Part shown: positions 4,074-64,000 of the stretch, piece by piece | Position numbering within the stretch: position 1 is the stretch's first letter | Layout of the letters: each line of letters starts with the position of its first letter | Assembly: GCF_964204645.1 (NCBI RefSeq) | Contig: NC_134032.1 | Coordinates: forward strand, 4,488,175-4,552,174 | Direction of reading: 5' to 3' | DNA length: 64,000 nt | Origin: Tubulanus polymorphus | Lineage: Eukaryota > Animalia > Nemertea | Notes under the pieces: model-generated | The model's database searches: none | Told to the model about the DNA's origin: nothing | The model's input: the letters and a program-made list of their open reading frames with translations, nothing else | Program-made: the position numbers and the translations under genes

Positions 4074-4453
4074 CAATTGGTCGCTCCACTTCGCTACCGC
4101 TCCGCTCCGCGACCAATTGATTTATTTACAATACACAAATTCATATAATCAATATATTCAAATAATAATAATTATTCTATTATTCAACTGAAATACACAC
4201 GGTTATGAAAATATATTATAGTTTTAAATTACTTTTAATATTTGTTTTTAATGAACTCGACCATTCAACCTTTGATATGAAAGCCCATTACCCCTATTAC
4301 TCTTAAAATATTCATGTAAATGAATAACATTTAAATTGACAGATTATTCAATATAAAAGTATATATTTACAACATTATTTCAATATTCATATTTGTGTGA
4401 GTTAGATTTTTAAACATTAAAATTGTTAGTAAAGTGTGATTGAAATAATACAT
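4074..4453 (+). repeat. Left terminal inverted repeat with terminal hairpin
   Basis: Reverse complement of 21361-21738 with about 6 substitutions; stem CAATTGGTCGC 4074-4084 / GCGACCAATTG 4109-4119. Confidence 0.95.
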
Positions 4454-4479
4454 GATATAAATCATTGAACTTCTAAAAT

Positions 4480-4510
4480 CAATTTTAATAAAAAATTTGA
4501 TATTAAAATG
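4480..4510 (+). promoter_or_regulatory. Putative promoter (replication-gene class, TAAAATG)
   Basis: CAATTTTAATAAAAAATTTGATATTAAAATG, almost identical to 8629-8659 before the next gene. Confidence 0.5.
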
Positions 4511-7500
4511 GAAGCAAATAAGTACTACTGTTCAACATGTAATATCAATATAGAAAAATCCCAAAAAGCAAGACACGATAAAACTAAAACACATTTAGAG
4601 GATAAATTGAAACTAGAATATAAAGATGATATATTAGAATCTAAATTAGATGAATTAAAGAATGAAAAAGAAACATACAAATGTGATACATGTAATCAAT
4701 CATTCAGTGATAAAAGATATTATAATGAACATTTAAAATCTAAAAGTCATATTAGAAATAAGAATAATGATATTTTAGGTGAAGATTATTTTGATAATGA
4801 TAACGATAAGAAACATAAGACAATTAAAAGAATAAGAAATAAATTAAACAATAAAAGACCGTATATGGAAGATGTAAGAAAATATATTAATGTATTGGAT
4901 AATAAAAAAGATATTGAGATAACCGAAGCATTTAAAAGTGATATTGGCCCAGCAGCTAACGAGTTTAAATTTCATGAAGGAAAAACATTAGAAGAAAATA
5001 AAAAACATTTAGAAAATATGAAAGAAATAATAAAAATAATTACAGATGTTGAATACCCTAAAATAAGTATATCAGTTAAAGTTAAATTCATAAAATCTGA
5101 AGGTAAACCAATATATAATATAAATTCTCATTCACAACATATTATTTCAAAACAACATATAGATGATAAATAAGATAAATGTTATAATGAAGTAAAAACT
5201 AAAATAGAAGAGAAATATTTTGAAGGATCTGGTTTAATATTTGATGAAATAATATTTATGACTTTACATGTTTATAACACAAAATATAATAATTTAACTA
5301 AATCAAAACCAATTGATGAAAAGAATGTATCATATTATAAAGAACCAGATATTGAAGCATCGAGTTATATTAAACGACCATTTAAAACTAATGCTGTAAT
5401 AAATGTACAAAATTTGGATGATAAATGTTTTCTATGGACAATTGTAAGTTGCTTACATCCAACAGAAGATATTACACATAGTTTTAGATTAACTCATTAT
5501 AAACCATTTGAAAATAATTATAAGATAGATAAGTATCCTGTTAGAATTAAAAACATCCCAAAAATAGAAAGAGATAATAATATAAAGATAAATGTATTTG
5601 ATTTAATCAAATTACCAAATACAAAAGGTAACAATATAAAAAATTATACATTAGAACCTTTATACCTATCAAAAGATTATGATTCAAACGATGTTATAGA
5701 TATACTATATTATGAGAATCATTATATGTGGATTAAACAAATCGATTTATTTTTTAAATCAGAAAATGATCATCATAAAATATATCTATGTAGAAAATGT
5801 TTACATAGATTCAGTAATGAAAGTACATTATTAAATCATAAACAATTATGTGAAAATCATGATTATTGTAAATTAGTTTTACCAAATGAAAAAGATAAAA
5901 TATTAGAATTCAAAAAATATGATTACAAAAATAAAGCACCATTTGTTATATATGGAGATTTTGAATCATTAAATAAAGAACTAACTGATCAAGATAGAAA
6001 AGAAATATATTATAAAAGAAAGAAATTAAATTCTAATGAAAATGATTTTTCAGATGAACCACCAAAAACAAATACTATTAAAAAGATTCATCAATCAGCT
6101 GCAGCTTTCGGGTTATATATTAAATCTGATTATCCAGAACTAATTGAAAGTGAATATTATCATTATAGAAATGAAAATGTTATCAATCATTTTTGTGACT
6201 TATTAATTGAATATGAAATAAGATTTAGTAAATTATTGAATACAAATATAGAAATTATAATGACAGAAGAAGATAAAGAAGAATTTGCGTTTGCAGATAA
6301 ATGTTATTATTGTGAAAAGATATTTAATTATAAAGATAAAAAAGTAAGAGACCATGATCATTTGAATGGAAAGTTTAGAGGCGCTGCACATGAGAATTGT
6401 AACTTACAAGCTAAGAAAATTAACTTTGTACCAGTTATATTTCATAATCTATCAGGATATGATGCACATTTATTCATCAAACAGTTATGCCATAAAATAG
6501 AAGAAATTAATAATGAAATAGAAAGATTAAATTCAAATAGATCAAAAGATAAAATACCAACTTATAAATTTAGAATGTTAGCTAAAACATCTGAGAATTA
6601 TATATCATTCCAATTTGGTTGCCTAAGATTTATAGATTCATATAAATTTTTAAATAGTTCATTAGATAACTTATCAAAATCATTAGTTGATGATGAATTA
6701 AAAATATTAAAGCAACACTACCCAAATAATGATGATTTTCAATTGATAAGATATAAAGGCGCAATTCCATATTCATTTTATAAATCACATAATGATTTCA
6801 ATATAACTGAATTATTGAAAGAACAATTCTATGATGAATTATAAAATGAATATGTTAAAGATGAAGTATATAATAGAACATTGAATATTTGGAATCATTT
6901 CAAAATAGAAAATCATGGACAATTAGTAGATATATATATTTAAAATCAGATGTATTATTATTATCGGATATATTTGAAAGGTTTAGAGATGTAAACCTAA
7001 AATATTTTAACATTGATCCTTGTCATTGTTATTCTAGTCCAGGTTTAACATGGGATTGTGGATTAAAATTCACAGATATAAAAATGGATTTGTTAACAAA
7101 TATAGATCAATTATTATTATTTGAAAAATCTATAAGAGGAGGAGTTTCAGGTGTATTAGGCGATAGATATTTCAATGTAAATGATAATCCTGGATATAAG
7201 TTATTATATATAGATGCAAATAATTTGTTTGGTTGGGCAATGATGGAACCACAACCTTATGGAGTATTTGAATTAACTGAAGTTTTACAGAATGAAAATA
7301 ATGATAAATTTGATTGGAAGAAAAGAATTCTAGATATCGCAGATGATTCAGATACTGGTTACTTCTTTGTTGTAGATTTAGAATATCCTGAACATATTAA
7401 ATTTAAATCTAGAAATCTAGCTTACTGTCCCGAACATAAAACTGTAACTCATGAAGAATTATCAAATTATCAAAAAAGAATTAAACCCGAAAATCATATT

Positions 7501-8627
7501 CATACAGATAAGTTAATGGTAACTCAAGAAGATAAATATAATTATGTAGTACATTATAGAATGTTAAAGTTTTATCTAAAACAAGGAATGGTTCTAAAAA
7601 AAGTACATAGATATATTTCATTTAGTCAATCTAAGTGGTTAGAAAAATATATAGATTTTAACACCAAACAGAGAACTGAAGCTAAAACTGATTTCGAGAA
7701 AGATTTCTTCAAGTTAATGAATAATGCATTTTATGGTAAGACTTGTGAAAATATTAGAAATAGAAATGATATTGAGTTAATTAGTAATGGTAAAGATTTA
7801 GACATTTACAATCATATCCTAAGTTCATTGGCAACAGAATATTTGATGAAAATTTAGCCGCAGTTAAGATGAGAAGAACATCAATGAAATTTAATAAACC
7901 AATGTTGGCGCTTCAGTTTTAGAATTATCAAAATTACTAATGTATGAATTCTATTATAATGTATTACAACCACTTTTTGGAGAAAAACATATAGAAATAT
8001 TATATTTTGATACCGACAGTTACATATTAAAGATAAAAACTGATAACATAACAGATGATTTAAAAACATTAAAACATCATTTTGATTTTAGTAACTATCC
8101 TATGAGAATCATTATATGTGGATTAAACAAATCGATTTATTTTTTAAATCAGAAAATGATCATCATAAAATATATCTATGTAGAAAATGAATCATGAATT
8201 GTTTAGCAATGATAATAAAAAAGTTCCAGGGAAGTTTAAGGATGAATTAGGTGGTGAAGAAATGATAGAGTTCATAGGTATTAGATCTAAAATGTATTCA
8301 TATAAAACTAAAGAACATGAAGCTAAAAAGTTAAAAGGAATAACCAAAAGTGTAGTAGAAAAGAATATTCATTTCAAAGATTACATCAATTGTATATTCA
8401 ATGAAGAAGTTAGAAAACATAAGATGAGATGTTTAAGATCTGAAGATCATGAAATGTTTATTGAAGAAATTGAAAAGATAAGTCTAAACCCATTTGATGA
8501 TAAAAGATATATTTTAGATGATGGAATTCATACAGTTGCTTATGGTTGCAATTTAGATGAATACTTAAAATTTAAAAGAGAAGAAACAAAAGAGAATGAG
8601 ATTATGAAAAGAATTCTAACGTGTTAA
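4508..8627 (+). pseudogene. polB: Protein-primed family B DNA polymerase with N-terminal C2H2 zinc fingers and an endonuclease VII-like domain; broken into 5 ORFs
   Basis: YGDFES (ExoI), FHNLSGYDAH (ExoII), VRDHDHLNGKFRGAAHENCN (EndoVII), YIDANNLFGWAM (motif A), KLMNNAFYGKT (motif B), YFDTDS (motif C); stops at 5173 and 6844, frameshifts near 6930, 7800-7910 and 8190. Confidence 0.95.
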
Positions 8628-8656
8628 TCAAATTTTAATAAAAATATGTTATTAAA

Positions 8657-9010
8657 ATGGAGAGTAAACAAACACACAGTGAGAACAACAAATTATTTCT
8701 AGATAGAATAAAAGATACTACAAATGTAAAATCTGTAGATTATAAATTCAAAAAGTTAACAGAATTAACAATTCATAAGAAATATCTAATTACAAATATT
8801 GATACAGTTACTAATAACTATGGAGATGAATTAATTATACACTTAGAATATGAAGGATTAAAAGGAAATACACATAAATTCAGAACATATTTACCAGATA
8901 GATTTCATAGATTATCATGTGAAGATCTTGAAGAATTATGTTCTGGTGATTTCTATTTCGTATACAAAGGTAAGAATGAAAAAGGGCACCATGAAATAGA
9001 TTTCGAATAA
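8657..9010 (+). CDS. Small Polinton protein, possibly an OB-fold ssDNA-binding protein
   Basis: Intact 117-aa ORF after PolB sharing its upstream motif; beta-rich pattern (KYLITNIDTVTNNYGDELIIHL..TYLPDRF); fold is inferred. Confidence 0.6.
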   Translation: MESKQTHSENNKLFLDRIKDTTNVKSVDYKFKKLTELTIHKKYLITNIDTVTNNYGDELIIHLEYEGLKGNTHKFRTYLPDRFHRLSCEDLEELCSGDFYFVYKGKNEKGHHEIDFE

Positions 9011-9027
9011 GAAAATATGTAAAATAA

Positions 9028-9789
9028 ATGGTAGAATTAAAAGAAAACAGAATATTTGTTGATTCTAGAAGACTTACAGATTATAAATCACATAATTTAC
9101 TAGTACAATTAGATAGAGAATTTAAGAATTGTGTAGATTTAAAATTAGTTAATATAAGTTTATGTAATTCTTTTTATAATATATCGAATAAAACTGTTGA
9201 ACATAGAGCCTTTTTAATTTTTGATAAAGGTAAAAATGAATGGTCCTCTATATTTTTAAAACCGGGGTTATATAATTTAGATACATTAGCACAAGAAATT
9301 AATAGAAAAGCCTGGCACAAATTAGGTAGTAGTTCTGGGTTTAGTATTAGATTTTTAAAAAGTGAGAGTTCTGATAGAATAAAGATAAGGTTGTCTAATA
9401 GTGAAAAACATAAATTTATGGTAAAAAAACCTATAGCTAAACCGTTAGGAATTCTTCCAGATAGATCTTTTACAAATATTGACGCTACTACATCAAACTT
9501 AATACCTTACACACATTTCTTTATTTATTGCAATTTAATCGATCCTACAAAAACATTCGAAGCAACTAAAGATATAACTTGTAATTCTGGTTTACTAAAC
9601 ATTTTACCATTGAAGAATGTTAAAGAATTTGGAACGCAAATAAATTATAATTTAACAGAATGTGATTTCAAACCATGCATTCCTCGTTTTAATAATTTTA
9701 GATTAGAAATTAGAAATCACAATGGATATTTAATTGATTTGAATAACTTTCCTGTAATTTATGAATTAGTTATAAGATGTAAAGAGTAA
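9028..9789 (+). CDS. Minor capsid protein (penton)
   Basis: IFVDSR..LKLVNISLCNSFYNI..PGLYNLDTL..FFIYCNLID..LEIRNHNGYLIDLNN, a pattern typical of Polinton single jelly-roll pentons. Confidence 0.8.
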   Translation: MVELKENRIFVDSRRLTDYKSHNLLVQLDREFKNCVDLKLVNISLCNSFYNISNKTVEHRAFLIFDKGKNEWSSIFLKPGLYNLDTLAQEINRKAWHKLGSSSGFSIRFLKSESSDRIKIRLSNSEKHKFMVKKPIAKPLGILPDRSFTNIDATTSNLIPYTHFFIYCNLIDPTKTFEATKDITCNSGLLNILPLKNVKEFGTQINYNLTECDFKPCIPRFNNFRLEIRNHNGYLIDLNNFPVIYELVIRCKE

Positions 9790-9806
9790 TTTTTTTCACT
9801 ATATAA

Positions 9807-10109
9807 ATGAATATAACTGTTGGACCGAGTATATGTTTTGGGTTTGATTTTAAACATGGTAAAGAAATGAGAATTAAACTAAATGATGTAATTACTGATA
9901 TAAAAAGTAAATCATTTAGTAATGCATCAATGATTAATAAAGAAAATTATAATATAGAAAAAGTAATTGATTTAATTAAATCACCTTTAGAATATTATGA
10001 ATTAAATGAAGATGGAATTATTGATGATATTAAAAATATATTAACCAAAATATATGATAATCATAAAAGTAGTAATGAAATAAATGTTGAATTAATCATA
10101 AATAAGTAA
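9807..10109 (+). CDS. Hypothetical Polinton protein
   Basis: Intact 100-aa ORF with a TAAATG start within the gene run. Confidence 0.6.
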   Translation: MNITVGPSICFGFDFKHGKEMRIKLNDVITDIKSKSFSNASMINKENYNIEKVIDLIKSPLEYYELNEDGIIDDIKNILTKIYDNHKSSNEINVELIINK

Positions 10110-10148
10110 ACTAAATATTTTGATGATAGTAATTTTTTTGATAAATAA

Positions 10149-10370
10149 ATGAGTGATAATAAGTGGATAATAACTGGATTATATAATGGCGCCTTACTAT
10201 CAGTTGGAACTGTTGGTTATTCAATGGTATTAACAAAAGTATTCAAAATGGGAAGTGTTAATGTTGATAGATTTGATATAAATGATATTTTAAAATTAAC
10301 ATTAGCAGTTACTTTATCTAATTTAACTATTGATTATTCAGAAAAACAAAAATATATTCCTCCCATATAA
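10149..10370 (+). CDS. Small hydrophobic Polinton protein
   Basis: 73 aa, two hydrophobic segments, TAAATG start. Confidence 0.6.
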   Translation: MSDNKWIITGLYNGALLSVGTVGYSMVLTKVFKMGSVNVDRFDINDILKLTLAVTLSNLTIDYSEKQKYIPPI

Positions 10371-10394
10371 ATACATAATTATTTTACTAAATAA

Positions 10395-10817
10395 ATGGCT
10401 TGTGCAGTTATAACTATTATAGGATCGGCAATTGTTAATGCTTTAGCATTTACTGGTGGTGGTTATTTATTCAAGCATATTGATAAAAATGGTTCATTAA
10501 CAGAACAAAAAAGACATAACTTAGCATTAGAGAAATACAATAAAGCAGCAGAAGAATATAGAGAAAAGAGACAAAACTATATGGATTACATCAATAAAGA
10601 ATTATTTGATCAGAAGATTTCACATAGAGATTTTCAATCAGTTGATGATGCAATGAGTTTATATAACGCGGTAACCAATAAAGAAAAATTACATCTATAC
10701 AAACCTAAATTATCAGATTATTATACCCCAAGTAATGAACAGAAGAAATATGAAATAATATGGATTTTAGGTGGAACTGTTATTGTTATATTTGTTGCTT
10801 ATAAGTTAACTAATTAG
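10395..10817 (+). CDS. Polinton membrane-associated protein (EQKRHN motif)
   Basis: N-terminal hydrophobic helix, EQKRHNLALEK, C-terminal TM; TAAATG start. Confidence 0.7.
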   Translation: MACAVITIIGSAIVNALAFTGGGYLFKHIDKNGSLTEQKRHNLALEKYNKAAEEYREKRQNYMDYINKELFDQKISHRDFQSVDDAMSLYNAVTNKEKLHLYKPKLSDYYTPSNEQKKYEIIWILGGTVIVIFVAYKLTN

Positions 10818-10836
10818 TAATTTTTTTGCTAAATAA

Positions 10837-11271
10837 ATGGATGATAAAGTTGATAATATTGATATTATTCCTCACGATATAAATAAAACTAAATTAAAAA
10901 CATATTTAGAAAAACAAATATTAGAATTTGAAAGTGACTTAAAGATAAAAAAGAAAAAATATTTAAAAAGTAAAATTATATATTATTTGATTATAAGTGG
11001 TTCGGTTACAATTAGTTCTGTAATAACATTTCTAGCAATATTCAGTCCATTAACACCTTTAGCTATATCAATTGGTGTATTAGGATTAAGTTCAAGTGTT
11101 TTAACCGGCATAAGTTAAAAATTAAATATAAAAAGTAATAAAGAAAAAATTAAAACTAATATAAAAGAAATTAATAAATTAAAGAATACACTAGATTATA
11201 TAATAAGTTTAAATGGTCATATAACAGTTGAAGAACAAGATAAATTATTAAAAGAATTAGTTAATTATTAA
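10837..11271 (+). pseudogene. Two-TM coiled-coil protein with a premature stop
   Basis: ORF to 11118; the reading frame continues as a coiled-coil after the TAA. Confidence 0.55.
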
Positions 11272-11287
11272 TTTTCTAGTTATATAA

Positions 11288-12594
11288 ATGGGGTTTCCAA
11301 AAGCTTTCCAATATAATAAATCAATTATCTATAATATTCCTGCAATAGATTTTAATAAAGATATTACATATAGAAATGAAGTTTTAAATTCATTAATTGA
11401 TTTATATATTTATGTTACTGAAAGTAATAATTTTCATGTAAAGATGGAAAATATATTTCATGTGTATACAATTAATTTCAAAAATTTAAATGAGGCAAAA
11501 CAATGGTTATTAAAATCTAATATTAAGTATTGGCAGAACCAATTAAATTTTGCTGTTTATTGCGCAACAACAGGATGTGGAATTAGTTGGCATGATCATT
11601 TAAACAAACCAAGTTTACCATTGATGTTATCACTTTTTAGATTTCAAACTTATTTTCAAATAAAATTAATATTAGATGAATTAGAATGTCCTTTACCAGG
11701 TTCAAAATATTTTAAAGAATTTAATAATAATATCAATTTTTCTAAGTTTTATAAAATATGTAATGAATTTAATATTAATTCAAATAAAGATTTTAGAGCA
11801 AAAATTGGAACGATGGGTGGATTAGGAATATTATATACTAAAGAATTTGGAAAAATAATGACAAATTCAGATATAAGAACACTCAATTGGAATGAATTAC
11901 CAAAATATTATAATAATATACAACAACAAAATAATAATGGTTGGGTTAATTTCATTTTAGAAAATAGTGAAGGTTTTACTAAAGCTGGAATACAAAGAAT
12001 AAATCAATCAATTAGAACTTATTTGATATGTATTTTAGGCGCGCAAGTTGAAACAAGATCCCCAATAATTGGAAATGATAACACTTCATTCGATGCGCAG
12101 AAACAATTTAAAGTATTATTTGAAGATTCAATTCATAATGATAAAAATAGATTCCGGAAAACATTGTTAGATATCAAAATTATTTAGATAAATCTCATGT
12201 AAGACTAAATTATTGTATAGGCCCTAATCTATTTATAATTTCTAATGATTTAGTATTAAAGATGGGAAACATAATTGGTTACAATAATCTAATTAAAACT
12301 GCAACAATAAATAATATGTTTGGATTAAATGATATAAATAAAAAGATTATTACTGCTCCAAAATTAATGGAAGGTGAAAAAAATAAAAAACACATTCAAT
12401 CAGCTGAAACTAAAACTAAGAATATTAAATTAAATAATGATTCTAAAATTAAAGATTATAATACATCAGAAAATATAAAAACTGATATTATTCAACATGA
12501 TATAATTAAACTAAATGATAATAAATCCCATGAAAATGCTAAATTAGCTTTAACTTGTGTAGGAATTGTAATCGGAGGAATATTATATTTTTAA
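11288..12594 (+). pseudogene. Conserved Polinton protein of unknown function (YWQNQLNFAVYCATTGCG family) with C-terminal TM; frameshifted
   Basis: ORFs 11288-12187 and 12262-12594 join into one gene by comparison with the homologues at 24895-25740 and 25767-26845. Confidence 0.75.
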
Positions 12595-12617
12595 TTTTAA
12601 TTTTTTTTATTTTGTAA

Positions 12618-14053
12618 ATGGCAGAAGGTGGAGAAGATATTGGAATTGATACTTTTGGTGACGCTCCCGGTATAAGTGATGAACAACCACCTGATTTTGA
12701 TGAAACAAGTTTTAGTAATGATAATAAAACAGAATATAATACTAATTTAAATACACCTGAATTTAAAATAAAACACGTTCAAAGATAAGTGCTGAAAATG
12801 AAGTACCAGAATTAACCGGAAAAGAATTTAAATATAATAAAATTGCTAGTGATTTTAAACCAATGTTTAAAAGATCTGGTTTCAATATAACAAATAAAGG
12901 TATGGATTATTTAGTAGAAGGTTTGAAATATTTTAATGGTGATTATTATTGGGAATTGAAAGGCGACTATTATTTTAAGATTTCAAATCTTTAAAGTACC
13001 GATAAAATAATAAAACAATCAACTTTTAATTTATTAAGTCAAGATAGAATTAAGAAAATCATTAATGATGATATAACTAATGTTACAAAAAAAGAAAGAG
13101 ATGATAATATAAGAGAATTTAAACAAAGAAATGATTATTTTTTTACGATAATTAATGAAAATTTAGAACCAGAAACAATTACTAAAGAAGTTATTAATTC
13201 CAAAACTAGTAAACCTAATTCAAGAGAAGTTCAAACTGAAAAACTTTTACCGAAGGGATTACTTGGTGCAACAGATCAAGAATTAGAAGATTTAAATATA
13301 TTTTCTGATAAAGCAATTAGAGAGATTATTAGTATAAGACATGCATCTGATAAAATTGCGCATGATAAAAGTATAAGAGATTTTAAAATTAGAACTTTAG
13401 AAAAAGAATCAACTGACAAAAATAAAGAAATATAAAAAATAAAGTCTGATCTTGATCGTCAAGCAATTGATGAAATGGAATATAGGCAAAAAGAATTACG
13501 TTTAGAAAAAGAAAAAGATGATTTAGAATATAACATAGAATTACAAAAAGAAGAAATTAAATTATTATTAAAATCATATGATTATAATATTAATAGATTA
13601 AAAGTTGTTGTTAAAGATTTGTTGATTAAACCAAATTCTGAAATATCATTGAAAGATAGAATAAAATTATTATTTAAGTTTGAAGGAATAACAGTTCTTT
13701 CAATTCTAACAGCTGTAACTATGGTATTTACAACAATTGGTTTAGCAATATCAAATGCTTTGAAATCTACTCCTACTCCTACTCCCAATAAACCGGATAA
13801 ACCTCCAGATAATAATTCTATACAAGATAAAGTTAAAGATGGTTTAAAGAAATTAGCAAAATATTTATGGGAACTATGTAAAAAATCTGCTGCAGCATTA
13901 CCAGGAATTATTGCATCAATTGTTGGTTTTATATTGAAATCTGAAGGAAACATTATCAACTTTGCTGCCGAACATATTATTTTATTTTTAATTACAGTTG
14001 TAAGTGCTATTATTTTTGGGTTAGTAAATATGATATCAAAAAATATCAAGTAA
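12618..14053 (+). pseudogene. Long coiled-coil protein with C-terminal membrane helices
   Basis: Starts MAEGGED at TAAATG; stops and frameshifts; last ORF 13475-14053 has a coiled-coil, TM, Pro linker, amphipathic helix and TM; homologue at 23450-24872. Confidence 0.7.
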
Positions 14054-14093
14054 CCATGATAAAAAATAAATAATTAATTTTTTTGTTAAATAA

Positions 14094-52860: not shown

Positions 52861-53214
52861 ATGGAGAGAGCCTGCTATACTCTTGTGATGGACACCGCCC
52901 GCACTTCTAAAGAGCACCTTTACATTCAGACTTCTTTTCCCGATATGGCCATCTCCGAAACGCAAGAGGCCCTCGCAGCCTTAAAAGACAGCATTGGCGA
53001 TATCGCGCATGTGCAGGCCCACACCCACCCTTATTCAAATGACTTCCATCCGCTCCTGAATGACGTGCTGCTCATGACTAAAGTCTCAAAGGCGCACGCG
53101 TCGACGATCTATAGCAATGCTGTGGCTGATGCCTTGCTGCAAGCGCTCCCTTATAGCGACACACTGCGACAACACGGACAACGCTCCCTTATAGCGACAA
53201 CATGGTGTGTTTAA
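52861..53214 (+). CDS. Viral orphan protein whose 3' end runs into the repeat block
   Basis: 117 aa; TTATAG upstream. Confidence 0.55.
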   Translation: MERACYTLVMDTARTSKEHLYIQTSFPDMAISETQEALAALKDSIGDIAHVQAHTHPYSNDFHPLLNDVLLMTKVSKAHASTIYSNAVADALLQALPYSDTLRQHGQRSLIATTWCV

Positions 53215-54440: not shown

Positions 54441-54857
54441 AAAAAAAGTATGTTAAGTGAGCGGGAAATCGCAATTGGCCTTTTACGAAAGAAAGGTACA
54501 GTTATTCAGTGGGGCTTTGAGAATGGAGCGCATAGCGAGAGTGGATTCATTGTTACTGCCGGACTTCACTCAGGAAGAATTTAATTCTCTGTTGATTATA
54601 GTGTTCGGGTCTATTGAGTTTCAGCTCTTTCTACTCTTAATTTCGAGTGTACTATCCGGCTTCACACAGGCAGGGTGGCAAAGGGCGGAACTGAATAGGA
54701 TCTGTCTATTTGGGGGCCCATAGTAGAGCTTTTATGGGCGCGGCAGAGCAGAGGGGCAAAATGATTTCAGCAAGATTTCATGAAGGAGTGGTTTAAGGCT
54801 TTGCGCACAATGCGTTTTTTTTTTTGCGCGGCAAGAGAAGAAAAAAAAAGAATAAGG

Positions 54858-55673
54858 CTAAGAGGAGGGCGCTGCGATAGGCAGGGAGTCTGTTTGGGGC
54901 ATCTGTTTGACGGCTATGGCGTCTAGTGCGCTTAAAAAGGTCAGGGCCTGAGTGACGTCAGTGAGGCGAAAGCAGCGGCATGGAACATCATGGAAGGGCA
55001 CGGGATCCCGGCGCTTGATGTATAGCGGCAGGACTCCGATGTCTTCTACGACCTGCGTAAACAGCGTCAGCTCTTGCGCCAATAGAGCCTCGCTGGTCTC
55101 TTTGCAGTAGATGTGCACTTGGGCGGCATCGGCGATTTCGCTAGTGTCATGATCGATTAGGACGTTGCTGTCCTTTAAGCGGGAGTATCGCAGGGGCGTT
55201 TTGGTGATAGGGGGCTTTTTTGGAAGGGCGTAGCCGGCTATCTGCGAGTAGTTATTGGCAAACAGCAAGGGGCGATTGGGCGCCCTTTGGAGAAGGCGCA
55301 CATTATTCCACATGTGAACAATGCCTATGATGTGGTGCTCAAAATACCGAGTGAGCTTCATGCCCTCTGTCGTGAGCGTTTCTTCGCCTAGTGCGCTGTA
55401 TTGTTGGAGGATGTCAAAGATGACATTGATGGCGATGTGCGCCTGAACCATGGTGCCTGCCCAGTCGGGCTCGCGGAGCTTATAAGTGAGGAGCAGATCT
55501 TCTATGCCTTTGTATGTGAAGAGCAGGGCCTGCTCGAGCGCTTTCATTCTGTCTTTGGCCACGGTGTCGAGCGCTTGGTGGCCTTTTACGAATGCGCCTA
55601 TAAATTCAGCGGCCGTGGATGCATCTCCAAGGTAGAGCAGCGCCTGGCGCTTTAAGTTGGTTAATGGGTCCAT
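54858..55673 (-). CDS. Viral multigene-family member (duplicate copy)
   Basis: EPDWAGTMVQAHIAI motif; likely start MDPLTN. Confidence 0.8.
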   Translation of the reverse strand: MDPLTNLKRQALLYLGDASTAAEFIGAFVKGHQALDTVAKDRMKALEQALLFTYKGIEDLLLTYKLREPDWAGTMVQAHIAINVIFDILQQYSALGEETLTTEGMKLTRYFEHHIIGIVHMWNNVRLLQRAPNRPLLFANNYSQIAGYALPKKPPITKTPLRYSRLKDSNVLIDHDTSEIADAAQVHIYCKETSEALLAQELTLFTQVVEDIGVLPLYIKRRDPVPFHDVPCRCFRLTDVTQALTFLSALDAIAVKQMPQTDSLPIAAPSS

Positions 55674-56456
55674 TTTTTGTCTCAAAATCTATAGTGGGCC
55701 CCTGATCAAATGTGCATAGCATGCCGGCGCGGGGCAGAGGGGGCAAAAAAAAGCAGTTATGCAAGAGGCTGAGTGTTTGTGCCTGATGGCGGGGGGAGGC
55801 GAGAGATAGCGATCTGCTTTAATGTATCAATATGCTCTAGCGCGCTGTCTGCTGTGGGGAGAAGAAAGCAGCGGTATGGTAGGTCATCTAAGATCGGATA
55901 GTGACTTTTATGGAGAATGCGCGGCATATTGGCGATCTTGTTGGCGATGGTGCTGATGTAAGTAGTCTTGATTGCTTGGAGGTCTTGGCTTTTCTAATTT
56001 TTTGCGCGAACGGGGGGCAGGGATCCAATGAATACCTGCTCATTTGCCGCTCGATGAGCTCGCCTGAGGGGTCATTTCCCGCCTGGTGCGCCGCCTGACT
56101 GCTGATTTCCCGCACGATTCGCAAAAGATTTCGCAAATGGTGTGTTTAGGGTTTCTTTCATTGATGCCATTTCTGCGTGAACGAAGTCAGGCGCCTTTTT
56201 TATCTTTCTTACTGTCTTTCCTGCGGCTTTGGGCATCGATGAGCAAAGGGGGTCGGCACTTTTGGCGTGCGAGCGTGCTTTTGTGAGTAGAAAAGGGCGT
56301 TCCTGCGTACCTGACGGCAGGGCCCCTCCCTCTTTTCTCTTCGCGATTCGCACAGATTTCATAAATGGTGTGTTTAGGGTTTCTTTCATTGATGGCGTTT
56401 CTGCGCGGATGGCGTTTTTGCGTGAACGAGCGCAGGGATCTAATGAATGGCTGCTG

Positions 56457-56694
56457 GTTTCTCGCCCGATTCGCAAAGGGCGCTGATGGCGTTTCTCGCC
56501 CGATTCGCAAAGGGCGCTGATGGCGTTTCTCGCCCGATTCGCAAAGGGCGCTGATGGCGTTTCTCGCCCGATTCGCAAAGGGCGCTGATGGCGTTTCTCG
56601 CCCGATTCGCAAAGGGCGCTGATGGCGTTTCTCGCCCGATTCGCAAAGGGCGCTGATGGCGTTTCTCGCCCGATTCGCAAAGGGCGCTGATGGC
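56457..56694. repeat. Second 7 x 34-bp array
   Basis: GTTTCTCGCCCGATTCGCAAAGGGCGCTGATGGC x7. Confidence 0.95.
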
Positions 56695-57454
56695 GTTTCT
56701 GCGTGAACGAGGGCAGGGGGTCTCCATTCTTTTGCTGATTTCTCGGGGCATTGAGCGGATGATTTAGGATGATTGGCGCAACGATTGAAAAAAATACAAA
56801 GATGCGTACTTAGGGTTTTTTGTGAAGGGCATTTTCGGCGCGAAGGGGGGCAGGGGCCTTTGGGGCCTTTGGAGGGGCCTGCGGAGAGGGGGGGGGCCAA
56901 AAAAAGGCGTAAAAACCCCCCTATGGGAGCTTAGTGGACACTCAGGCGCTGACCAGGCGCGCGAGGGCGCTATAAGCACCGTGGGAAAAGGGGAGCCAAT
57001 GGGGGTCAATCCGGGCTACCCTCTTCCCCTATAAGGAAAAAAAAGTATGTTAAGTGAGCGGGAAATCGCAATTGGCCTTTTACGAAAGAAAGGTACAGTT
57101 ATTCAGTGGGGCTTTGAGAATGGAGCGCATAGCGAGAGTGGATTCATTGTTACTGCCGGACTTCACTCAGGAAGAATTTAATTCTCTGTTGATTATAGTG
57201 TTCGGGTCTATTGAGTTTCAGCTCTTTCTACTCTTAATTTCGAGTGTACTATCCGGCTTCACACAGGCAGGGTGGCAAAGGGCGGAACTGAATAGGATCT
57301 GTCTATTTGGGGGCCCATAGTAGAGCTTTTATGGGCGCGGCAGAGCAGAGGGGCAAAATGATTTCAGCAAGATTTCATGAAGGAGTGGTTTAAGGCTTTG
57401 CGCACAATGCGTTTTTTTTTTTGCGCGGCAAGAGAAGAAAAAAAAAGAATAAGG

Positions 57455-58270
57455 CTAAGAGGAGGGCGCTGCGATAGGCAGGGAGTCTGTTTGGGGCATC
57501 TGTTTGACGGCTATGGCGTCTAGTGCGCTTAAAAAGGTCAGGGCCTGAGTGACGTCAGTGAGGCGAAAGCAGCGGCATGGAACATCATGGAAGGGCACGG
57601 GATCCCGGCGCTTGATGTATAGCGGCAGGACTCCGATGTCTTCTACGACCTGCGTAAACAGCGTCAGCTCTTGCGCCAATAGAGCCTCGCTGGTCTCTTT
57701 GCAGTAGATGTGCACTTGGGCGGCATCGGCGATTTCGCTAGTGTCATGATCGATTAGGACGTTGCTGTCCTTTAAGCGGGAGTATCGCAGGGGCGTTTTG
57801 GTGATAGGGGGCTTTTTTGGAAGGGCGTAGCCGGCGATCTGCGAGTAGTTATTGGCAAACAGCAAGGGGCGATTGGGCGCCCTTTGGAGAAGGCGCACAT
57901 TATTCCACATGTGAACAATGCCTATGATGTGGTGCTCAAAATACCGAGTGAGCTTCATGCCCTCTGTCGTGAGCGTTTCTTCGCCTAGTGCGCTGTATTG
58001 TTGGAGGATGTCAAAGATGACATTGATGGCGATGTGCGCCTGAACCATGGTGCCTGCCCAGTCGGGCTCGCGCAGCTTATAAGTGAGGAGCAGATCTTCT
58101 ATGCCTTTGTATGTGAAGAGCAGGGCCTGCTCGAGCGCTTTCATTCTGTCTTTGGCCGCGGTGTCGAGCGCTTGGTGGCCTTTTACGAATGCGCCTATAA
58201 ATTCAGCGGCCGTGGATGCATCTCCAAGGTAGAGCAGCGCCTGGCGCTTTAAGTTGGTTAATGGGTCCAT
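57455..58270 (-). CDS. Viral multigene-family member
   Basis: One amino-acid difference from 54858-55673. Confidence 0.8.
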   Translation of the reverse strand: MDPLTNLKRQALLYLGDASTAAEFIGAFVKGHQALDTAAKDRMKALEQALLFTYKGIEDLLLTYKLREPDWAGTMVQAHIAINVIFDILQQYSALGEETLTTEGMKLTRYFEHHIIGIVHMWNNVRLLQRAPNRPLLFANNYSQIAGYALPKKPPITKTPLRYSRLKDSNVLIDHDTSEIADAAQVHIYCKETSEALLAQELTLFTQVVEDIGVLPLYIKRRDPVPFHDVPCRCFRLTDVTQALTFLSALDAIAVKQMPQTDSLPIAAPSS

Positions 58271-58352
58271 TTTTTGTCTCAAAATCTATAGTGGGCCCCT
58301 GATCAAATGTGCATAGCATGCCGGCGCGGGGCAGAGGGGGCAAAAAAAGCAG

Positions 58353-59175
58353 TTATGCAAGAGGCTGAGTGTTTGTGCCTGATGGCGGGGGGAGGCGAGA
58401 GATAGCGATCTGCTTTAATGTATCAATATGCTCTAGCGCGCTGTCTGCTGTGGGGAGAAGAAAGCAGCGGTATGGTAGGTCATCTAAGATCGGATAGTGA
58501 CTTTTATGGAGAATGCGCGGCATATTGGCGATCTTGTTGGCGATGGTGCTGATGTAAGTAGTCTTGATTGCTTGGAGGTCTTGGCTTTTCTGGGTGCAGG
58601 ATTCGATCACTTCGTCGAGGTCGGCGGTCTTTTCAGACGGCGGTCTTGGAGATCTCTACGATGTTGTTGGAGGCTAAGGTGAAATAGTATGGGAGTGAAT
58701 TTCTTGCGAGGGACACGTCTCTGATAGTCTGAGAATAAGTTTGGCATGAGTGCGTATCAGTATATAGTAAAGACTTTTGGGGCGAGCGGGTCAGCAGGGG
58801 GGCATTTTTCCATACATCATCTATTCTTCTGCGGATCTGGGCAAGAGCCTGGGCCTGTATAGGGGCGCAGTAGCCGAACGCGATTTCGGGGGTGTATATA
58901 TAGCCTTGGAAGATCTCATTGACGATGTTGTACGAAAGGTGTGCCTGTATTAAGAGGCCTGCCCAGCTGGGCTCAGGGATCTCATGAGCATTGATGAATT
59001 GTGGGATGGTTTCGTGGGTAAAGGTCAGGGCCTCTTCGAGGGCTACCATTTTTGTGCGGGCGAGGGGTGAGAGCTTTTTGTGCTTTAGGATGCTGCTGCC
59101 GATTAGTTCGATGGCCACTGCGGCCTCGCCGAAGCGAAAGACAGCGTTCTCTTTTAGCTCTTCTTTGTCTGCCAT
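58353..59175 (-). pseudogene. Viral multigene-family member, frameshifted near 58630
   Basis: EPSWAGLLIQAHLSY; the downstream ORF ends DDLPYRCFLL, matching HDVPCRCFRL of the neighbour. Confidence 0.75.
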
Positions 59176-59272
59176 GATAAATCTACTAAATATGTAGTAA
59201 GCTAGATGGCCAAAATCTGCATAATATATGTTCTATAAAAAAAAAGGCTTACGAAGGCAGGGGCCCTCCCCA

Positions 59273-60160
59273 TCATAGGATGGTGCACGAGCGCGTCATG
59301 GGCCGAGCGGTTCTTCTTAGGGATCGAAAGAGGCGTGCTGCGCCCAGTCGGATGTGGATAAAAATGTCTGAGTCTAAAAAGGTGTTATGGGCGCGATTCG
59401 AATTGATGTATCTTATCAGGTCGTCGAGCTCTCTCTGGGCGGTTTGTAAGCCCGCTAGGGCAGAGCACACTATATAGATGGGGCTGCCCGGGGGATAGGG
59501 CGGCACTGCGCTCTTTTGCGAAATGGTTTCTACGGCCTCTCGCAGGGTGTCAGAGGCATCTGCCTGCAATTGGCTAATGACCTCATAGTAGCTAGAGGCT
59601 TTGGCGCGGTAGTGGGCTAAGATTCTGTTTTCGTCTTGGAAGGCGCCCAGATTTTGATTGCGTGTGCTGCGAATGTAGTGAAAGATCTTGAGGACATGAT
59701 TCATGAGCAGCTCTTCGTCTTTGGTGGTGAAGTGCGAGTACTTTTCCCAGGCTGAGGGGTCAAAGGGCAGCGGGTCACAAAAGAGCTGGGTGGCGCGAGT
59801 ATAGAGCTTGGATATGCGGCTATCGGATAGGCTCTTTATTGTTTTTTTTATTGACGAGTCTGAGCGCTCTTTATCGGTGGGCAGGGCGCTGTAGTCTTCT
59901 AATAGCTGTTCGACAGCCAAATACATAGAGTGCGCCGCGAGTATCAGAGATAGCCATTCAGTCTCGTCTGGGAAGGGGAGAAAGGCAGGCGCTATGGCGA
60001 TCATAGAGAGGCGCGATTGAGAGATGGTGCGATAGTAGTGGTGATAGCGATTGCCGATGCCAGAAGTGTCAGCCATTTGGATGCTAAGGGCTGCGCAGGA
60101 CGAGCTGCCCTGGCCGAGGGCCTCGATTATTGTTAGCTTTTTTGTCTTTAAGGCAGCCAT
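59273..60160 (-). CDS. Viral multigene-family member
   Basis: ETEWLSLILAAHSMY; 295 aa. Confidence 0.75.
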   Translation of the reverse strand: MAALKTKKLTIIEALGQGSSSCAALSIQMADTSGIGNRYHHYYRTISQSRLSMIAIAPAFLPFPDETEWLSLILAAHSMYLAVEQLLEDYSALPTDKERSDSSIKKTIKSLSDSRISKLYTRATQLFCDPLPFDPSAWEKYSHFTTKDEELLMNHVLKIFHYIRSTRNQNLGAFQDENRILAHYRAKASSYYEVISQLQADASDTLREAVETISQKSAVPPYPPGSPIYIVCSALAGLQTAQRELDDLIRYINSNRAHNTFLDSDIFIHIRLGAARLFRSLRRTARPMTRSCTIL

Positions 60161-60171
60161 TTTATATTAAT

Positions 60172-61023
60172 TTAAGATCCTAAAATGTAAAAAAAACAGT
60201 CTCTATCAGGTATGATCGTATACTGCATGGGAGGGGCCTCGTCGTCGGCGCCCCAGCCCTGAGTCATTTCGATGGCTTGATCGATGCGATCGAGAAGCAT
60301 TGACAGGGAGTGCATGTGCTCGGCTTTGGGTGCCAGGCTCGAAGGGGGCAGGTGCTTTGCGTCCCTGGACTCTACATCGATGGCGCCGATCGCGCTCTTT
60401 ATGTAGGACTGGGCTTCCTTAAATTTAGTGGTGGCATTCTTGGCGAGCGCGCGCAAAAAGTTCTGGAGGCACACATTGTCTTGGGGCGCAATCGCCTGCT
60501 GCGCGGCATTAGATCTCAGGACTTCCATTACAAAGTCATCGGCGCCATGGATGCCTACATCGATCTGTTTGTCATCGGGGCTGAGGAGCAGGCTGGGCCG
60601 AGTGCGAGAAGCAGGCTCCCAAGGGTCTGCCTTGGAGCCCATGCGAAGGGCCATTTTATACAAAGAGAAGGCGCATCGATTGTATGAAGATCGCATGCCG
60701 TCTATGATGGACGTCTGGGTGGCCAAGCTGGGCAGGCGCTGCCTTTGAAACTTTTGGCAGTACTCTTCTATTTGTAGGTAAAAGGAGTAGGCCTCGGCCA
60801 GGAGGCATATCCAGCTGGCCTGATCGGTGGTGATTGTAAACATGGGAATCATCTCATAGATCTCCAAGCGCGCCTTGGTGATCTGGGTAAAGCGGCAGAT
60901 CTGTTCGCTCGATGTCGCATCACCGTCCTGCAGAAAGCCGATCAAGGCAAAGATCATGGAGTTAGTGCTGCCAATCAGGTACACGGCGTGCGCGGGGATG
61001 TTTTTTTTGCGCAATTCTTCCAT
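60172..61023 (-). CDS. Viral multigene-family member
   Basis: QASWICLLAEAYSFY; 283 aa. Confidence 0.75.
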   Translation of the reverse strand: MEELRKKNIPAHAVYLIGSTNSMIFALIGFLQDGDATSSEQICRFTQITKARLEIYEMIPMFTITTDQASWICLLAEAYSFYLQIEEYCQKFQRQRLPSLATQTSIIDGMRSSYNRCAFSLYKMALRMGSKADPWEPASRTRPSLLLSPDDKQIDVGIHGADDFVMEVLRSNAAQQAIAPQDNVCLQNFLRALAKNATTKFKEAQSYIKSAIGAIDVESRDAKHLPPSSLAPKAEHMHSLSMLLDRIDQAIEMTQGWGADDEAPPMQYTIIPDRDCFFYILGS

Positions 61024-61175
61024 GATTAGTAATGTGGACTATTAAAAAGCGATTTATAGCGAAACGGGCGCCGGCTGGTAAACGGGCACAGGGGCGCCAA
61101 ACAAAAAAAAAGAAATGGCCAGGGCGATTATAGTATAAAATAGAATATCGCGCAAAAGGGGCAGGGGCCTTAGAG

Positions 61176-61941
61176 TCAAAGGGCCGCTAGGCGCCTGAGG
61201 ATCGCTTTGTAGCCCTTGTCAAGGATGCGCAGCCCCGCGAATTGTTCGCAAAATATAAGGATGCTGAGTTTACCGTGCGGGTTGTATAGAGAGCTGTTTC
61301 GCGTGATAGTTGCGCATTTGTATTCGAGCGATGAATAGGCGCTATAACTGAGAGTCTTGATGAATTGGAGAGTGTTGCCCCCGACTTCAAAGGCTCTTTC
61401 AAGGACGCAGGACTCCATGGGGGGGTCATTATCCAAAATCTCGTTGGACGTGCGGACATCTTCAAAGAGATCGCGAAGGATCTCATTTAAGAATTTGGAC
61501 TCAGGAGACGACTCGTCGGGTATGGGCGGCCATGATGTGATGGGCGGCTGAATGGCCATGAGGGCTTCGGCATAGGCCTGAATAGCGCAGAAATCTCGCT
61601 GGTATAATGTTCGGAGATCCTGAATGACATCCTCTAAGTCGGCTGAGTTTGGAGGGTTCGGCAGGGTCTACGATGCTATCTATGAGGGTTTCGGCCTTTA
61701 GGCAAATCGAGTGCCCCCACGCGGCTAGGCCTACCCATTCGGCCGCTGACCAGGCGGGCAGCAGCATTTCCATCCAGTGATATAAAAACGAGCGCGCATC
61801 CCTGATGTGGCGGGCTCGATGGGCCAAAAAGGCTATATTTATAGGTGTGGCGCCAAGTATCATCATCATGGCCTGCAGGGTGCCATGGGCAGAGGTGAGC
61901 GCCTCGATGATGCTGGCCTTTATTTCGAGTACTGTCAGCAT
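61176..61941 (-). pseudogene. Viral multigene-family member, frameshifted near 61650
   Basis: AAEWVGLAAWGHSIC; the alternative frame SADLEDVIQDLRTLYQ joins ORF 61176-61559. Confidence 0.7.
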
Positions 61942-62133
61942 AGTAGGAATTATATTTAATTTTCTAACTAACTTGGGGCGCGGCAAATATGCGCAATCTT
62001 GTTCAAGGGGGCAGGGGGCCTGCGCGCCATAGGGGGGGCGAGGCCGAGGGGAAAGCAAAGCGGGCACAAAAAAAAACACACGCACACTCTCTGAAGAAAA
62101 GGAGAGAGAGGCAGGGCACAGGGGCGCCTTGGC

Positions 62134-62931
62134 TTAGACGCAGCAGCAACGGCAGCGCTCGATGCATTTGTCGAGGGCGCTCCTGGCATTTAAGATAGAA
62201 GTCTCGCCTTCGTAGGCGCCCATCAGTTCATTGCAAATGTCGGACCAGGCCACTGCGCAGACCTGAATGGGATTTAGATCGCATGCGCGCATTTTGGCGA
62301 TCTCTTGGTCCGGCAAGCCGAGCAGGTGGGCGCGCACTGCCCTAATGGCGGTGTCCCAATAGTCTAGCTCCATAGAGACCTGCTTAGTCTCTTCGATGGT
62401 CGAAGGGTCAGCCTCTGCTAATGTGCGCTTGATTCTGCGGGTGGCAATGATGGTGTCCATGATGCCGCGATGGGGCCCTTCGCAGCTGGGGGTCAGGTCA
62501 TCGTCATCGCTGTTGTGGCACTCATAGTAGGTGGGGTCCCCTCTTATCAGCTCTTTTGAGCGGGTGCCCATCAGGTCGAATTCTGATGATGATATGTGCC
62601 TAAGGGCGCAGAGGGCTTGCATTTTTTTTGTGGTGTCATTCCTTGGGTCTTCATAGGCTTGCATGTAGAACTTGATGTATGTAAAGGCAATCAGAGCGCG
62701 GCCCAAGAGCTCTGCCCACATTCCTTCTAGGGGCAAATGCCTCCTGTCGTCTAGGTCGTCGAGGCATTTTAGCATATTTTTCATATATTGATCTATGTTT
62801 TGGTTGATCAGGGAGCCTATACCATGGGCGCTGCCACAGAGGTCAAAGAGGCCCACAAATACATGAATCGAGACCATGGATACCTTAATGGTCAGGTCAA
62901 TCTCGCTTTCCCATTTGCTTGCGACATTCAT
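62134..62931 (-). CDS. Viral multigene-family member (divergent)
   Basis: EGMWAELLGRALIAF; C-terminal CRCCCV. Confidence 0.7.
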   Translation of the reverse strand: MNVASKWESEIDLTIKVSMVSIHVFVGLFDLCGSAHGIGSLINQNIDQYMKNMLKCLDDLDDRRHLPLEGMWAELLGRALIAFTYIKFYMQAYEDPRNDTTKKMQALCALRHISSSEFDLMGTRSKELIRGDPTYYECHNSDDDDLTPSCEGPHRGIMDTIIATRRIKRTLAEADPSTIEETKQVSMELDYWDTAIRAVRAHLLGLPDQEIAKMRACDLNPIQVCAVAWSDICNELMGAYEGETSILNARSALDKCIERCRCCCV

Positions 62932-63040
62932 CTTTATTGTAAAAGTCAATACCTAAAATAATCACTGATTTGCGCTTTCTTGCGGCCCTTGCGAAAAAAA
63001 AAGCTCAGGGGGCTGAGTGACTAGTGTACAAGGCAGTGGG

Positions 63041-63751
63041 CTATGGGCCGCCCCACCGGGCAGGGCTGGGGGCCAAAAGAAGCGGCGATGCAGGGGGCGG
63101 CCATAGGCGGCTGACATCTGTGGGCAGGTGCGCCTCTGCCGCAGGGGGTTCTCTATATCTGATTTGGGCGAGGGCAAAGTGTGGGGGCACTGAAAGGGCA
63201 TGTGGAGATGGGCACATGAATATAGAGGGGCCCTGCGCGGCAGAGGAGCGAGCGCTAAGGCAGAGAGAGTCGCATAAGGAGCTAGTATCGGCATCAGAGG
63301 CATTATCATATAGAATGCAAAAGCCCTTCCAAGGAGGGCCCTCGTCTTCGGTGCGCGGGTGCAGCCTTTCGCCCAAGAGGCGCGACATCTGCTTGAGGGC
63401 CGATCGAGAGCGCGAGAGGTAGATGGCATTTGTAATAATTAGCAAAATGTGCATATCTGGATTAAAGGTGCTGAGAAATAGTTTTAGGGGTGTTGCTTTC
63501 ATGTCGATGAGGCATACATATTCATCTTTTAGGCCAAAGAGCATGGATATATTGTCTATCTCTGGGCGGTGTAGGACAGGGTCTTGACCATGCAGCAGCA
63601 CATGGATATGCGCCCTGTCTTTGCCATCTTTGTAGTCGGTGGCGATTTCGTGCCAGCGCTGCCAATAGTGGGTGAGCTGCGGGAGCCAGCAAAAGAGGCG
63701 AAGGTCTGAGCTGGGCTTGTGGCTAAATGCAAAACCATGATCGAAAGGCAT
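63041..63751 (-). CDS. Viral orphan protein (alpha/beta pattern)
   Basis: 236-aa ORF, AT-rich upstream, T9 downstream. Confidence 0.6.
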   Translation of the reverse strand: MPFDHGFAFSHKPSSDLRLFCWLPQLTHYWQRWHEIATDYKDGKDRAHIHVLLHGQDPVLHRPEIDNISMLFGLKDEYVCLIDMKATPLKLFLSTFNPDMHILLIITNAIYLSRSRSALKQMSRLLGERLHPRTEDEGPPWKGFCILYDNASDADTSSLCDSLCLSARSSAAQGPSIFMCPSPHALSVPPHFALAQIRYREPPAAEAHLPTDVSRLWPPPASPLLLAPSPARWGGP

Positions 63752-64000
63752 GTCGAAATAATAAGGACTTAACTTCTACAAAGGAGGTAAAATGTGCATT
63801 GCACTGCGCCCGGCTAGCCTTTTTTGTCAGGGCCCCCCCCCCTTTTCTTTTTTGGGGCGAAAAAAAAAACACAACAGTAAGGGGAGGGCCCCCTAAACGT
63901 CGTGGAAGCCTTCTAAGAAGTCGTCTATGCTCTTTAAGATCCTATGTGGATCGTCTGCGAAGATTTGGGGGGTGAGATGAGGATCGATCTGTTGGCGAAT

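Follow-up and report, generated by a model that had tools for sequence, protein, structure and literature searches.

Polintons with start signals resembling the vaccinia late promoter lie beside a large-virus insert in DNA of Tubulanus polymorphus

We have analyzed a 64,000-nucleotide stretch of Tubulanus polymorphus DNA (contig NC_134032.1, positions 4,488,175 to 4,552,174; referred to in what follows as the window) in which several Maverick/Polinton elements lie close to a piece of a large DNA virus. Base composition separates the window into three classes, with GC contents of 0.38-0.40 for host-like DNA, 0.24-0.25 for the Polintons and 0.51 for a viral block that runs from ∼35250 to the end. 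Self-BLAST and repeat finding establish one full-length but broken Polinton, denoted A, and three further remnants, B, C and a 5' fragment of a polymerase gene, Table 1. An earlier interpretation made from the letters of the window alone (the sequence-only reading) had claimed at least three Polinton remnants and a giant-virus insert, and this part of it holds. With polB, rve and inverted repeats, element A fits the definition of a Polinton that PMC11296320 quotes, and it is the signal preceding its genes that is of greatest interest here.

Thirteen of the 16 gene starts of A, selected by hand, read TAAATG, as compared with 53 of the 736 ATGs in A overall, a background of 7%; two of the other three read TAAAATG and one TAAGATG. 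The TAAATG starts listed in the sequence-only reading are thus borne out. A capsid profile retrieved 24 related metagenome loci, of which the 19 better matches (L002-L020) were counted, while L021-L025, weak and degraded matches in which no TAAATG start was seen, were left out of the start counts. In the counted loci TAAATG opens 56 of the 72 open reading frames (ORFs) of at least 100 aa, against a background of 164 in 2685 ATGs. An origin of these starts in AT bias is ruled out by the loci of 40-44% GC, where the signal is found at 3/4 (L006, 44% GC) and 2/3 (L007, 40% GC) of the starts. When the 73 TAAATG starts (56 from the loci, 17 from the window) are taken together an upstream core becomes apparent, with T at -12 in 68, A at -18 in 58, and A or T at each of positions -16 to -13 in 70-73 of the 73; positions -12 and -18 played no part in picking the starts.

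Divergent gene pairs are separated by only 19, 28, 28 and 30 nt, with longer gaps of 47, 63, 64 and 72 nt and a gap of 24 nt in L014/L015. Stop-start translational coupling is ruled out by such pairs, as there is no upstream ORF on the strand in question. A distance of 19-30 nt between genes is too short for ordinary RNA polymerase II (Pol II) core promoters and 5' untranslated regions (UTRs), and since TAAATG abuts the ATG and two promoters would have to be accommodated within 19-30 nt the signal is difficult to reconcile with transcription by host Pol II. The T-run signals of the sequence-only reading survive mainly as this fixed promoter core. The case for a role as pox early terminators is weak, because sense runs of T6+ occur at 0.23 of the codon-shuffled expectation (50 ORFs, 12 loci) but runs of A7+ and A8+ are depleted as well, to 0.49 and 0.35.

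The vaccinia late promoter consists of a T-containing core, a spacer of 5-7 bp and TAAAT(G/A), and overlaps the start so that no 5' UTR is present (PMC5294985); slippage at this promoter leads to poly(A) leaders (PMC6211774). The T-core and TAAATG of the Polintons have the same architecture as this published structure, which suggests that the Polinton signal works like a vaccinia late promoter, with TAAATG as a candidate start site. The proposal that these elements are wired for cytoplasmic, pox-type transcription gains support in that the signal is conserved in the clade, independent of GC content, fixed in its spacing and compatible with very small divergent gaps.

Table 1. Features of the window, with positions in nucleotides from its first letter.
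Feature	Position	Strand	Remarks
Fourth Polinton remnant, 5' part of pPolB gene	∼1346..2200	-	outside the range covered by the sequence-only reading
Polinton A	4074..21738	+	full-length, decayed, ∼17.7 kb, GC 0.24
Left terminal fold-back of A	4074..4119		11-bp stem; degenerate 5-nt GC-rich repeats form the loop; z -3.4
Left terminal inverted repeat of A	4091..4453		363 nt, 98% to right repeat
pPolB of A	4508..8627	+	five pieces; start TAAAATG
Eight conserved small/structural-module genes of A	8657..14053	+	starts 8657, 9028, 9807, 10149, 10395, 10837, 11288, 12618
Double jelly-roll major capsid protein of A	14094..15341	+	interrupted; TAAATG start
Accessory ORF of A with 24-nt tandem repeats	15374..16171	+	TAAATG start
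A32-type packaging ATPase of A	16513..17124	-	Pox_A32 2.6e-12; TAAATG start
rve integrase of A	17126..18208	-	PF00665 5.6e-11; interrupted; start TAAGATG
Two conserved ORFs of A, unknown family	18215..19184	-	TAAATG starts
HNH-type ORF of A	19487..20164	-	TAAATG start
Right terminal inverted repeat of A with fold-back	21361..21738		repeat 21361-21723; fold-back 21687-21738; abuts truncated integrase of B
Right terminal fold-back of A	21687-21738		18-bp stem; z -9.5
Polinton B remnant	21739..25675	-	integrase (5' part), capsid and two structural genes retained; 84% to A
Polinton C remnant	25756..∼30800	+	structural gene joined to broken pPolB, 73% to A; host DNA inserted at 27637-28203
Host repeat DNA	30801..35249		between Polinton C and viral block
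Large DNA virus insert	35250..64000		GC 0.51, 76% coding; open at the window's right edge; left boundary 35250 to ∼35560
RPB2	35847..39362	+	uninterrupted, 1171 aa, very divergent
Viral A32 packaging ATPase	39346..40434	+	Pox_A32 4.9e-11
2.6-kb tandem duplication	53403..58591		99.5% identical; each unit with one 271-aa ORF and an array of 34-nt repeats
Two small paralogous ORF families	54858..61941	-	54858/57455/58633; 59273/60172/61501; no database family

The protein-primed DNA polymerase (pPolB) of A carries N-terminal zinc fingers, an endonuclease VII insert and an OTU-like motif recognized by eye, and contains a 96-nt internal duplication (8094-8189). All but one of the eight small/structural-module genes open with TAAATG, the gene at 8657 having TAAAATG; three of them are broken, and that at 9028 is a probable penton gene by position only. 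The capsid gene is of the double jelly-roll type, the fold having been seen in a model (pLDDT, the score of the predicted local distance difference test, 86) of the capsid of relative L004, 73% identical to that of A, that matches the capsids of iridovirus, Paramecium bursaria chlorella virus 1 (PBCV-1) and virophages. Decay of A is extensive, the longest open stretch being 556 aa, and several of its ORFs are without a family match. No peptidase family, adenain included, was found by Pfam among its 23 ORF pieces, although a very divergent protease could escape such a search, and A is not filed under the adintoviruses, which were baited with adenain. No match to a TBP or TFIIB family was obtained among the Polinton ORFs scanned, and these Polintons yielded no gene for an RNA polymerase. 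A target-site duplication was not seen at the ends of A; the truncated integrase on its right flank has no other half on the left and the insertion site has therefore been rearranged. Neither viral contigs nor prokaryote genomes gave a match to ATPase and capsid queries from the Polintons. The P0175 cluster contains capsid relatives with 54% identity whose database entries name them hypothetical proteins of 'Bartonella sp.'; their contigs are 0.5-1.6 kb long, and they are likely to be carry-over of eukaryotic host DNA.

The two genes with TAAAATG, pPolB and the ORF that follows it, share a longer upstream block, TTTTAATAAAAA (window 4465-4510 and 8612-8659), that also precedes some genes of L002, L004 and L009 and is possibly a second, earlier promoter class. 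A deoxynucleoside kinase gene of L004 (10340-10981; PF01712, 1.7e-31) starts with TAAATG and is positioned head to head with the start of a zinc-finger pPolB. Long imperfect inverted repeats lie between convergent genes in L002 (3688-3852) and L009 (3121-3277), with z values of ∼-10 relative to mononucleotide shuffles, and a weaker one is found in the window at 16172-16512; these are possible hairpin terminators. Tandem repeats of 110 nt, rich in short palindromes, occupy 20307-20664 between the HNH gene and the right inverted repeat of A.

Each tip of A folds back on itself, as the sequence-only reading had proposed, and the strength of the fold-back was equalled in 0 of 200 shuffles at either end. 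The evidence comes from one element, copy A being the only one with its ends. Both fold-backs use one stem register and their loops differ in the number of 5-nt repeats; the common register argues for a sequence-driven snap-back rather than two unrelated accidents. It is likely that the fold-backs would arise by snap-back priming in which GCG in the terminal repeats pairs with CGC at the stem, either in every replication cycle or only at insertion. Similar palindromes, of 52 nt, have been described at the termini of protist virophages, there too with both explanations under consideration (bioRxiv 10.64898/2026.07.28.741278). Polymerases of the pPolB type normally prime from a terminal protein (PMC11161782), which argues against a need for the hairpin. 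Among 25 loci the stem was not found, none of the related loci reaching a terminus, and the single match in a scan of viral contigs (L001, an unrelated virus) is attributed to chance. Microhomology joining of the right fold-back to the integrase of B was also considered and dropped, as homologues do not continue with that sequence.

Remnant B contains TAAATG at 22143, 23418 and 24872. Over their common stretch B and C show 89% identity, and both carry a small insertion, not present in A, at a single shared site; they probably derive from one old copy, and on the basis of this identity and the common insertion site there were perhaps only two independent integrations. Matches to PF03175 in C are below the curated cut-off (2e-5 and 5e-4), and its 73% DNA identity to the broken polymerase gene of A identifies the sequence as a pPolB gene. 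The fourth remnant is closer to C (75-79%) than to A (66-69%), and may be B's own polymerase, severed by the insertion of A and host repeats. The gene order of B matches that of L004, in which capsid and integrase are followed by ATPase and pPolB on the same strand.

Two further items of the sequence-only reading fared less well. The HNH gene, considered there to be of the nucleocytoplasmic large DNA virus (NCLDV) type, is present in A and recurs in L002, L006 and L007, but its Pfam match is below cut-off and the nearest Atlas clusters are phage proteins, so that the NCLDV label is unsupported. An intein was thought to begin at the damaged pol-c motif of C, yet the evidence amounts to ∼10 residues that are cut off by host DNA, with no Pfam or NCBIfam match for this end stretch at E<=10 and 0 matches in a pattern scan of viral contigs, and the claim is unproven. 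Endonuclease inserts are known in Polinton pPolBs (bioRxiv 10.1101/2023.08.22.554363).

The insert belongs to Nucleocytoviricota, as judged from its multisubunit RNA polymerase gene and A32 ATPase. Apart from RPB2 and the ATPase none of its ORFs has a convincing family, and capsid and DNA polymerase genes are absent from the part that lies within the window; the ORF at 42679-43551, taken by eye for a thymidine kinase, has no PDB or NCBIfam match and reaches only E 0.16-0.2 in Pfam. Relatives of RPB2 are few, with five at E<=1e-30 (25-29% identity) among 1.84 billion protein representatives, all in unnamed clusters whose longest contigs measure 106, 143, 166 and 1760 kb, with one of 5 kb. A word-indexed protein search produced no relative and a profile search there only distant ones, and DNA surrounding the relatives was not recovered from viral or metagenome contigs. 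The protein on the 1.76-Mb contig, P0003, is a second RPB2 of the viral lineage and perhaps another endogenised copy. In a tree of 129 sequences of 900-1450 aa, which included no named references, the RPB2 of the window and four full-length relatives form one long branch with a support of 0.999.

Compared with the PDB, a profile of this RPB2 group scores 157 bits to African swine fever virus (ASFV), 124 to archaea, 120 to Pol II and 47 to vaccinia, the weakest eukaryote-type match, in a list that does not contain subunits of Megaviricetes. The top distant match is asfar-like (844 bits to ASFV and 487 to Pol II), and 76 of 131 full-length library matches score at least 600 bits to an asfar-like sequence. 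The window RPB2 is ∼18% identical to two asfar-like library matches, and asfar-like relatives have their Glu-Asp and two Lys at positions that align with its own. A structure model was poor (pLDDT 49.6), Foldseek matching all NCLDV groups. Our best guess from these results is an affinity with asfarviruses. With Asfuvirales it has in common the best match of RPB2 to a solved structure, distant library matches that are mostly asfar-like, an A32 ATPase, a TATA-like upstream motif and paralog families; it differs in its long branch shared with few unnamed sequences, in a GC content of 51% and in that nearly all other ORFs are family-less. The 47 bits to vaccinia and the lack of TAAATG at any of 29 ORF starts speak against an Rpo132-like polymerase and against membership in Poxviridae. 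Endogenous regions resembling Pokkesviricetes have been broadly catalogued (bioRxiv 10.1101/2025.04.19.649669) and the catalogue could list this insert, which constitutes a near-intact 29-kb piece of a rare lineage of large DNA viruses tied to an animal-like host genome.

What, then, transcribes the Polintons? The explanation that we favor, by a modest measure, is that this clade uses a pox-type helper other than the neighboring virus; dependence on a helper of whatever kind appears to us rather probable. The element would lie silent in the chromosome, integrated by its own rve integrase, until a pox-type virus infects the cell. Transcription by the late polymerase of that virus would begin at the AAA of TAAATG and slippage would supply a poly(A) leader, as in vaccinia, so that capsid, ATPase, integrase and pPolB could be expressed without a templated 5' UTR, and the element would then be copied by pPolB, packaged and spread with the helper. 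Also counted in its favor are the deoxynucleoside kinase gene of L004 and the presence of Polinton-like elements in entomopoxvirus occlusion bodies (PMC11296320).

A number of observations weigh against this explanation. Three genes of A, that for integrase and two on the replication side, depart from the signal, and TAAATG is found at 0/7 ORF starts of L016/L017 and 0/2 of L012. The start counts are not independent, in that the genes are homologous and the pairs L002/L003, L014/L015 and L016/L017 are 96-99% identical, so that the p-values overstate the independence of the counts, and a distant Polinton with intact genes that could serve as an outgroup control was not among the loci compared. 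Poxvirus sequence is absent from the window, and in corals the hallmark genes of Polintons are expressed, with no mention of a helper in the available text of PMC11131425. In a capsid tree whose basal node has no support value, L016/L017, a related Polinton lineage of 46-49% capsid identity, branch outside the loci that bear the motif; they form a natural control for how helper dependence may be gained or lost.

The coral data also enter into the leading alternative, namely that transcription is by host Pol II, possibly aided by a factor that the element encodes, with the Polintons being autonomous nuclear elements and TAAATG a convergent, compact initiator or translation context. The chromodomain in the integrase of L002 would suit a nuclear element, the family-less ORFs of A could be transcription factors, and 16 of 50 genes are followed downstream by AATAAA at a distance of no more than 60 nt, a raw count in AT-rich DNA. 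The tightness of the signal for Pol II and the lack of a TBP or TFIIB match, both described above, speak against it, and we consider this alternative doubtful although it is the best of those remaining.

The sequence-only reading had cast the adjacent virus as the possible partner, and here the results point the other way. None of the 29 viral ORFs starts with TAAATG, and the bipartite Polinton pattern, which occurs 10 times in A (8 at genes) and 3 times in B/C, is absent from the 28.7 kb of insert. No protein similarity between the Polintons and the insert was found, nor is there T-run depletion in the virus. The two viral sites cited earlier for the motif TAAAATGG are a mixed pair: a real ORF does start at 60160, whereas the frame opened at 51884 has 3 codons. 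Upstream of 5/29 viral ORFs there is a TATAGA (expected 0.8; none on the other strand), which places the viral motif closer to the late initiator of ASFV, TATA (PMC7458399). Decay differs also, an unbroken RPB2 lying not far from a Polinton whose polymerase is in five pieces, and host repeats lie in between. The neighboring virus is thus probably not the helper, as far as can be judged from sequence; the insert is probably separate from, and younger than, the Polintons and probably shares with them only a repeat-rich landing site.

There is nevertheless evidence in the opposite direction, which weighs against our choice of a different helper. TAAAT is found within 40 nt upstream of 8/29 viral ORFs (expected 2.9, 0/300 shuffles; 6 on the opposite strand), in five of the eight at -12 to -14, and the Polinton starts contain TAWATA, reading T-A-W-A-T-A before AATG, which is compatible with an asfar-type helper. 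On this account the polymerase of the neighbor's lineage would read the Polinton TAWATA as ASFV reads its TATA initiator, and both partners would have been captured from one co-infected cell. Virus and Polintons are within 4.5 kb of each other, and six viral ORFs have ATAG at -9 to -12, five of these with a T 8 nt further upstream, the spacing of the Polinton core, as noted by eye and post hoc. Taking both sides together we view the neighbor's lineage as an unlikely helper.

About equally unlikely is that the viral part is not integrated at all, a free or co-sequenced virus having been joined to host repeat DNA by the assembler. Intact ORFs, an unameliorated GC content, a junction inside a repeat array and the occurrence of three relatives on contigs of 106-166 kb, possibly free genomes, are all consistent with such a join. 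Against it are the 1.76-Mb contig of one relative and a 15-nt tandem duplication (35220-35249) adjoining the left junction, of the kind that repair-mediated insertions may often leave. Less probable still is the most inclusive scenario, in which a widespread clade of animal Polintons with integrase genes would be endogenous virophages of cytoplasmic Pokkesviricetes, with leaderless pox-late promoters and self-priming fold-back ends, the adjacent insert would be the near-intact genome of an undescribed, deeply branching, asfar-related animal virus and the actual helper, and the two would form a jointly stored, heritable antiviral memory. That the locus is an archive like a PIWI-interacting RNA (piRNA) cluster, kept for storing both partners, is the least credible proposal, since four Polinton pieces, the viral insert and a transposase remnant, densely nested, are what a plain repeat dump would give too and the orientations are mixed (A +, B -, C +, fourth remnant -).

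Of known systems the closest to A in gene content are the Maverick/Polinton elements of Polintoviricetes, among them the adintoviruses of Starrett et al. (PMC8502044), with pPolB, rve integrase, A32 ATPase, double jelly-roll capsid, long inverted repeats at the termini and integration in an animal-like genome. A differs from the adintoviruses described there in lacking an adenain protease by Pfam, a visible target-site duplication and, in the other direction, in its leaderless TAAATG starts; the words promoter and hairpin occur 0 times in that paper. Maverick/Polinton tips are AGT-type microsatellites. The ends of A, in contrast, are GC-rich fold-backs.

The entomopoxvirus-associated viruses AHEV_PLV1/2 and CBEV_PLV1 (Barth et al. 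2024, PMC11296320) are likewise Polinton-type elements, proposed to parasitise an invertebrate poxvirus. Compared by their description, they differ in having an adenovirus-type protease, no rve integrase and, in the three lepidopteran ones, a phospholipase; they are tied to their helper by co-packaging, the word promoter occurring 0 times in the text and supplement as available. Virophages and Polinton-like viruses of protists (mavirus with the giant virus CroV; the Halocafeteria elements of bioRxiv 10.64898/2026.07.28.741278) are integrated, have promoters that copy a giant-virus late motif and have terminal palindromes flanking inverted repeats. Their motifs are however of the CroV type and their palindromes occur mostly with replicases other than pPolB and beside target-site duplications, whereas A is a pPolB element with fold-backs at which no target-site duplication was seen. 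The yeast pGKL1/2 plasmids (PMC6211774) are replicons of the pPolB type and use a pox-like TAAAN initiator, for which production of poly(A) leaders has been shown, but have their own RNA polymerase and no capsid.

Full-text literature searches, judged by titles and the starts of abstracts and with subscription papers outside their reach, produced no report of pox-type promoters in animal Polintons, and the word promoter occurs 0 times in two preprints from 2026 that deal with polisuvirus diversity. A clade of Polintons with putatively leaderless starts of the pox late type is a real and testable novelty. A signal that is clade-wide and fixed in position makes it testable how animal Polintons are transcribed and whether any of them are virophages, and screening other Polinton clades for motifs could predict their helpers. 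Were the favored explanation true, defence of the provirophage type, so far shown in protists, would extend to animal germlines.

Further observations concern the non-coding parts of the window. In the virus, nested 17/18-nt and perfect 34-nt repeat arrays (53200-54100 and 56130-56700) lie inside the 2.6-kb duplication and mark a possible origin or variable region. The host repeat DNA at 30801-35249 contains four copies of a 0.4-1 kb repeat and, at 31590-31862, the remnant of a DDE_Tnp_4 (Harbinger-type) transposase. A tRNA search of the window found none. To the left of A, at 3860-3945, there is an (ACAG)n microsatellite followed by a short hairpin, an arrangement that may resemble Helentron-associated HINE elements.

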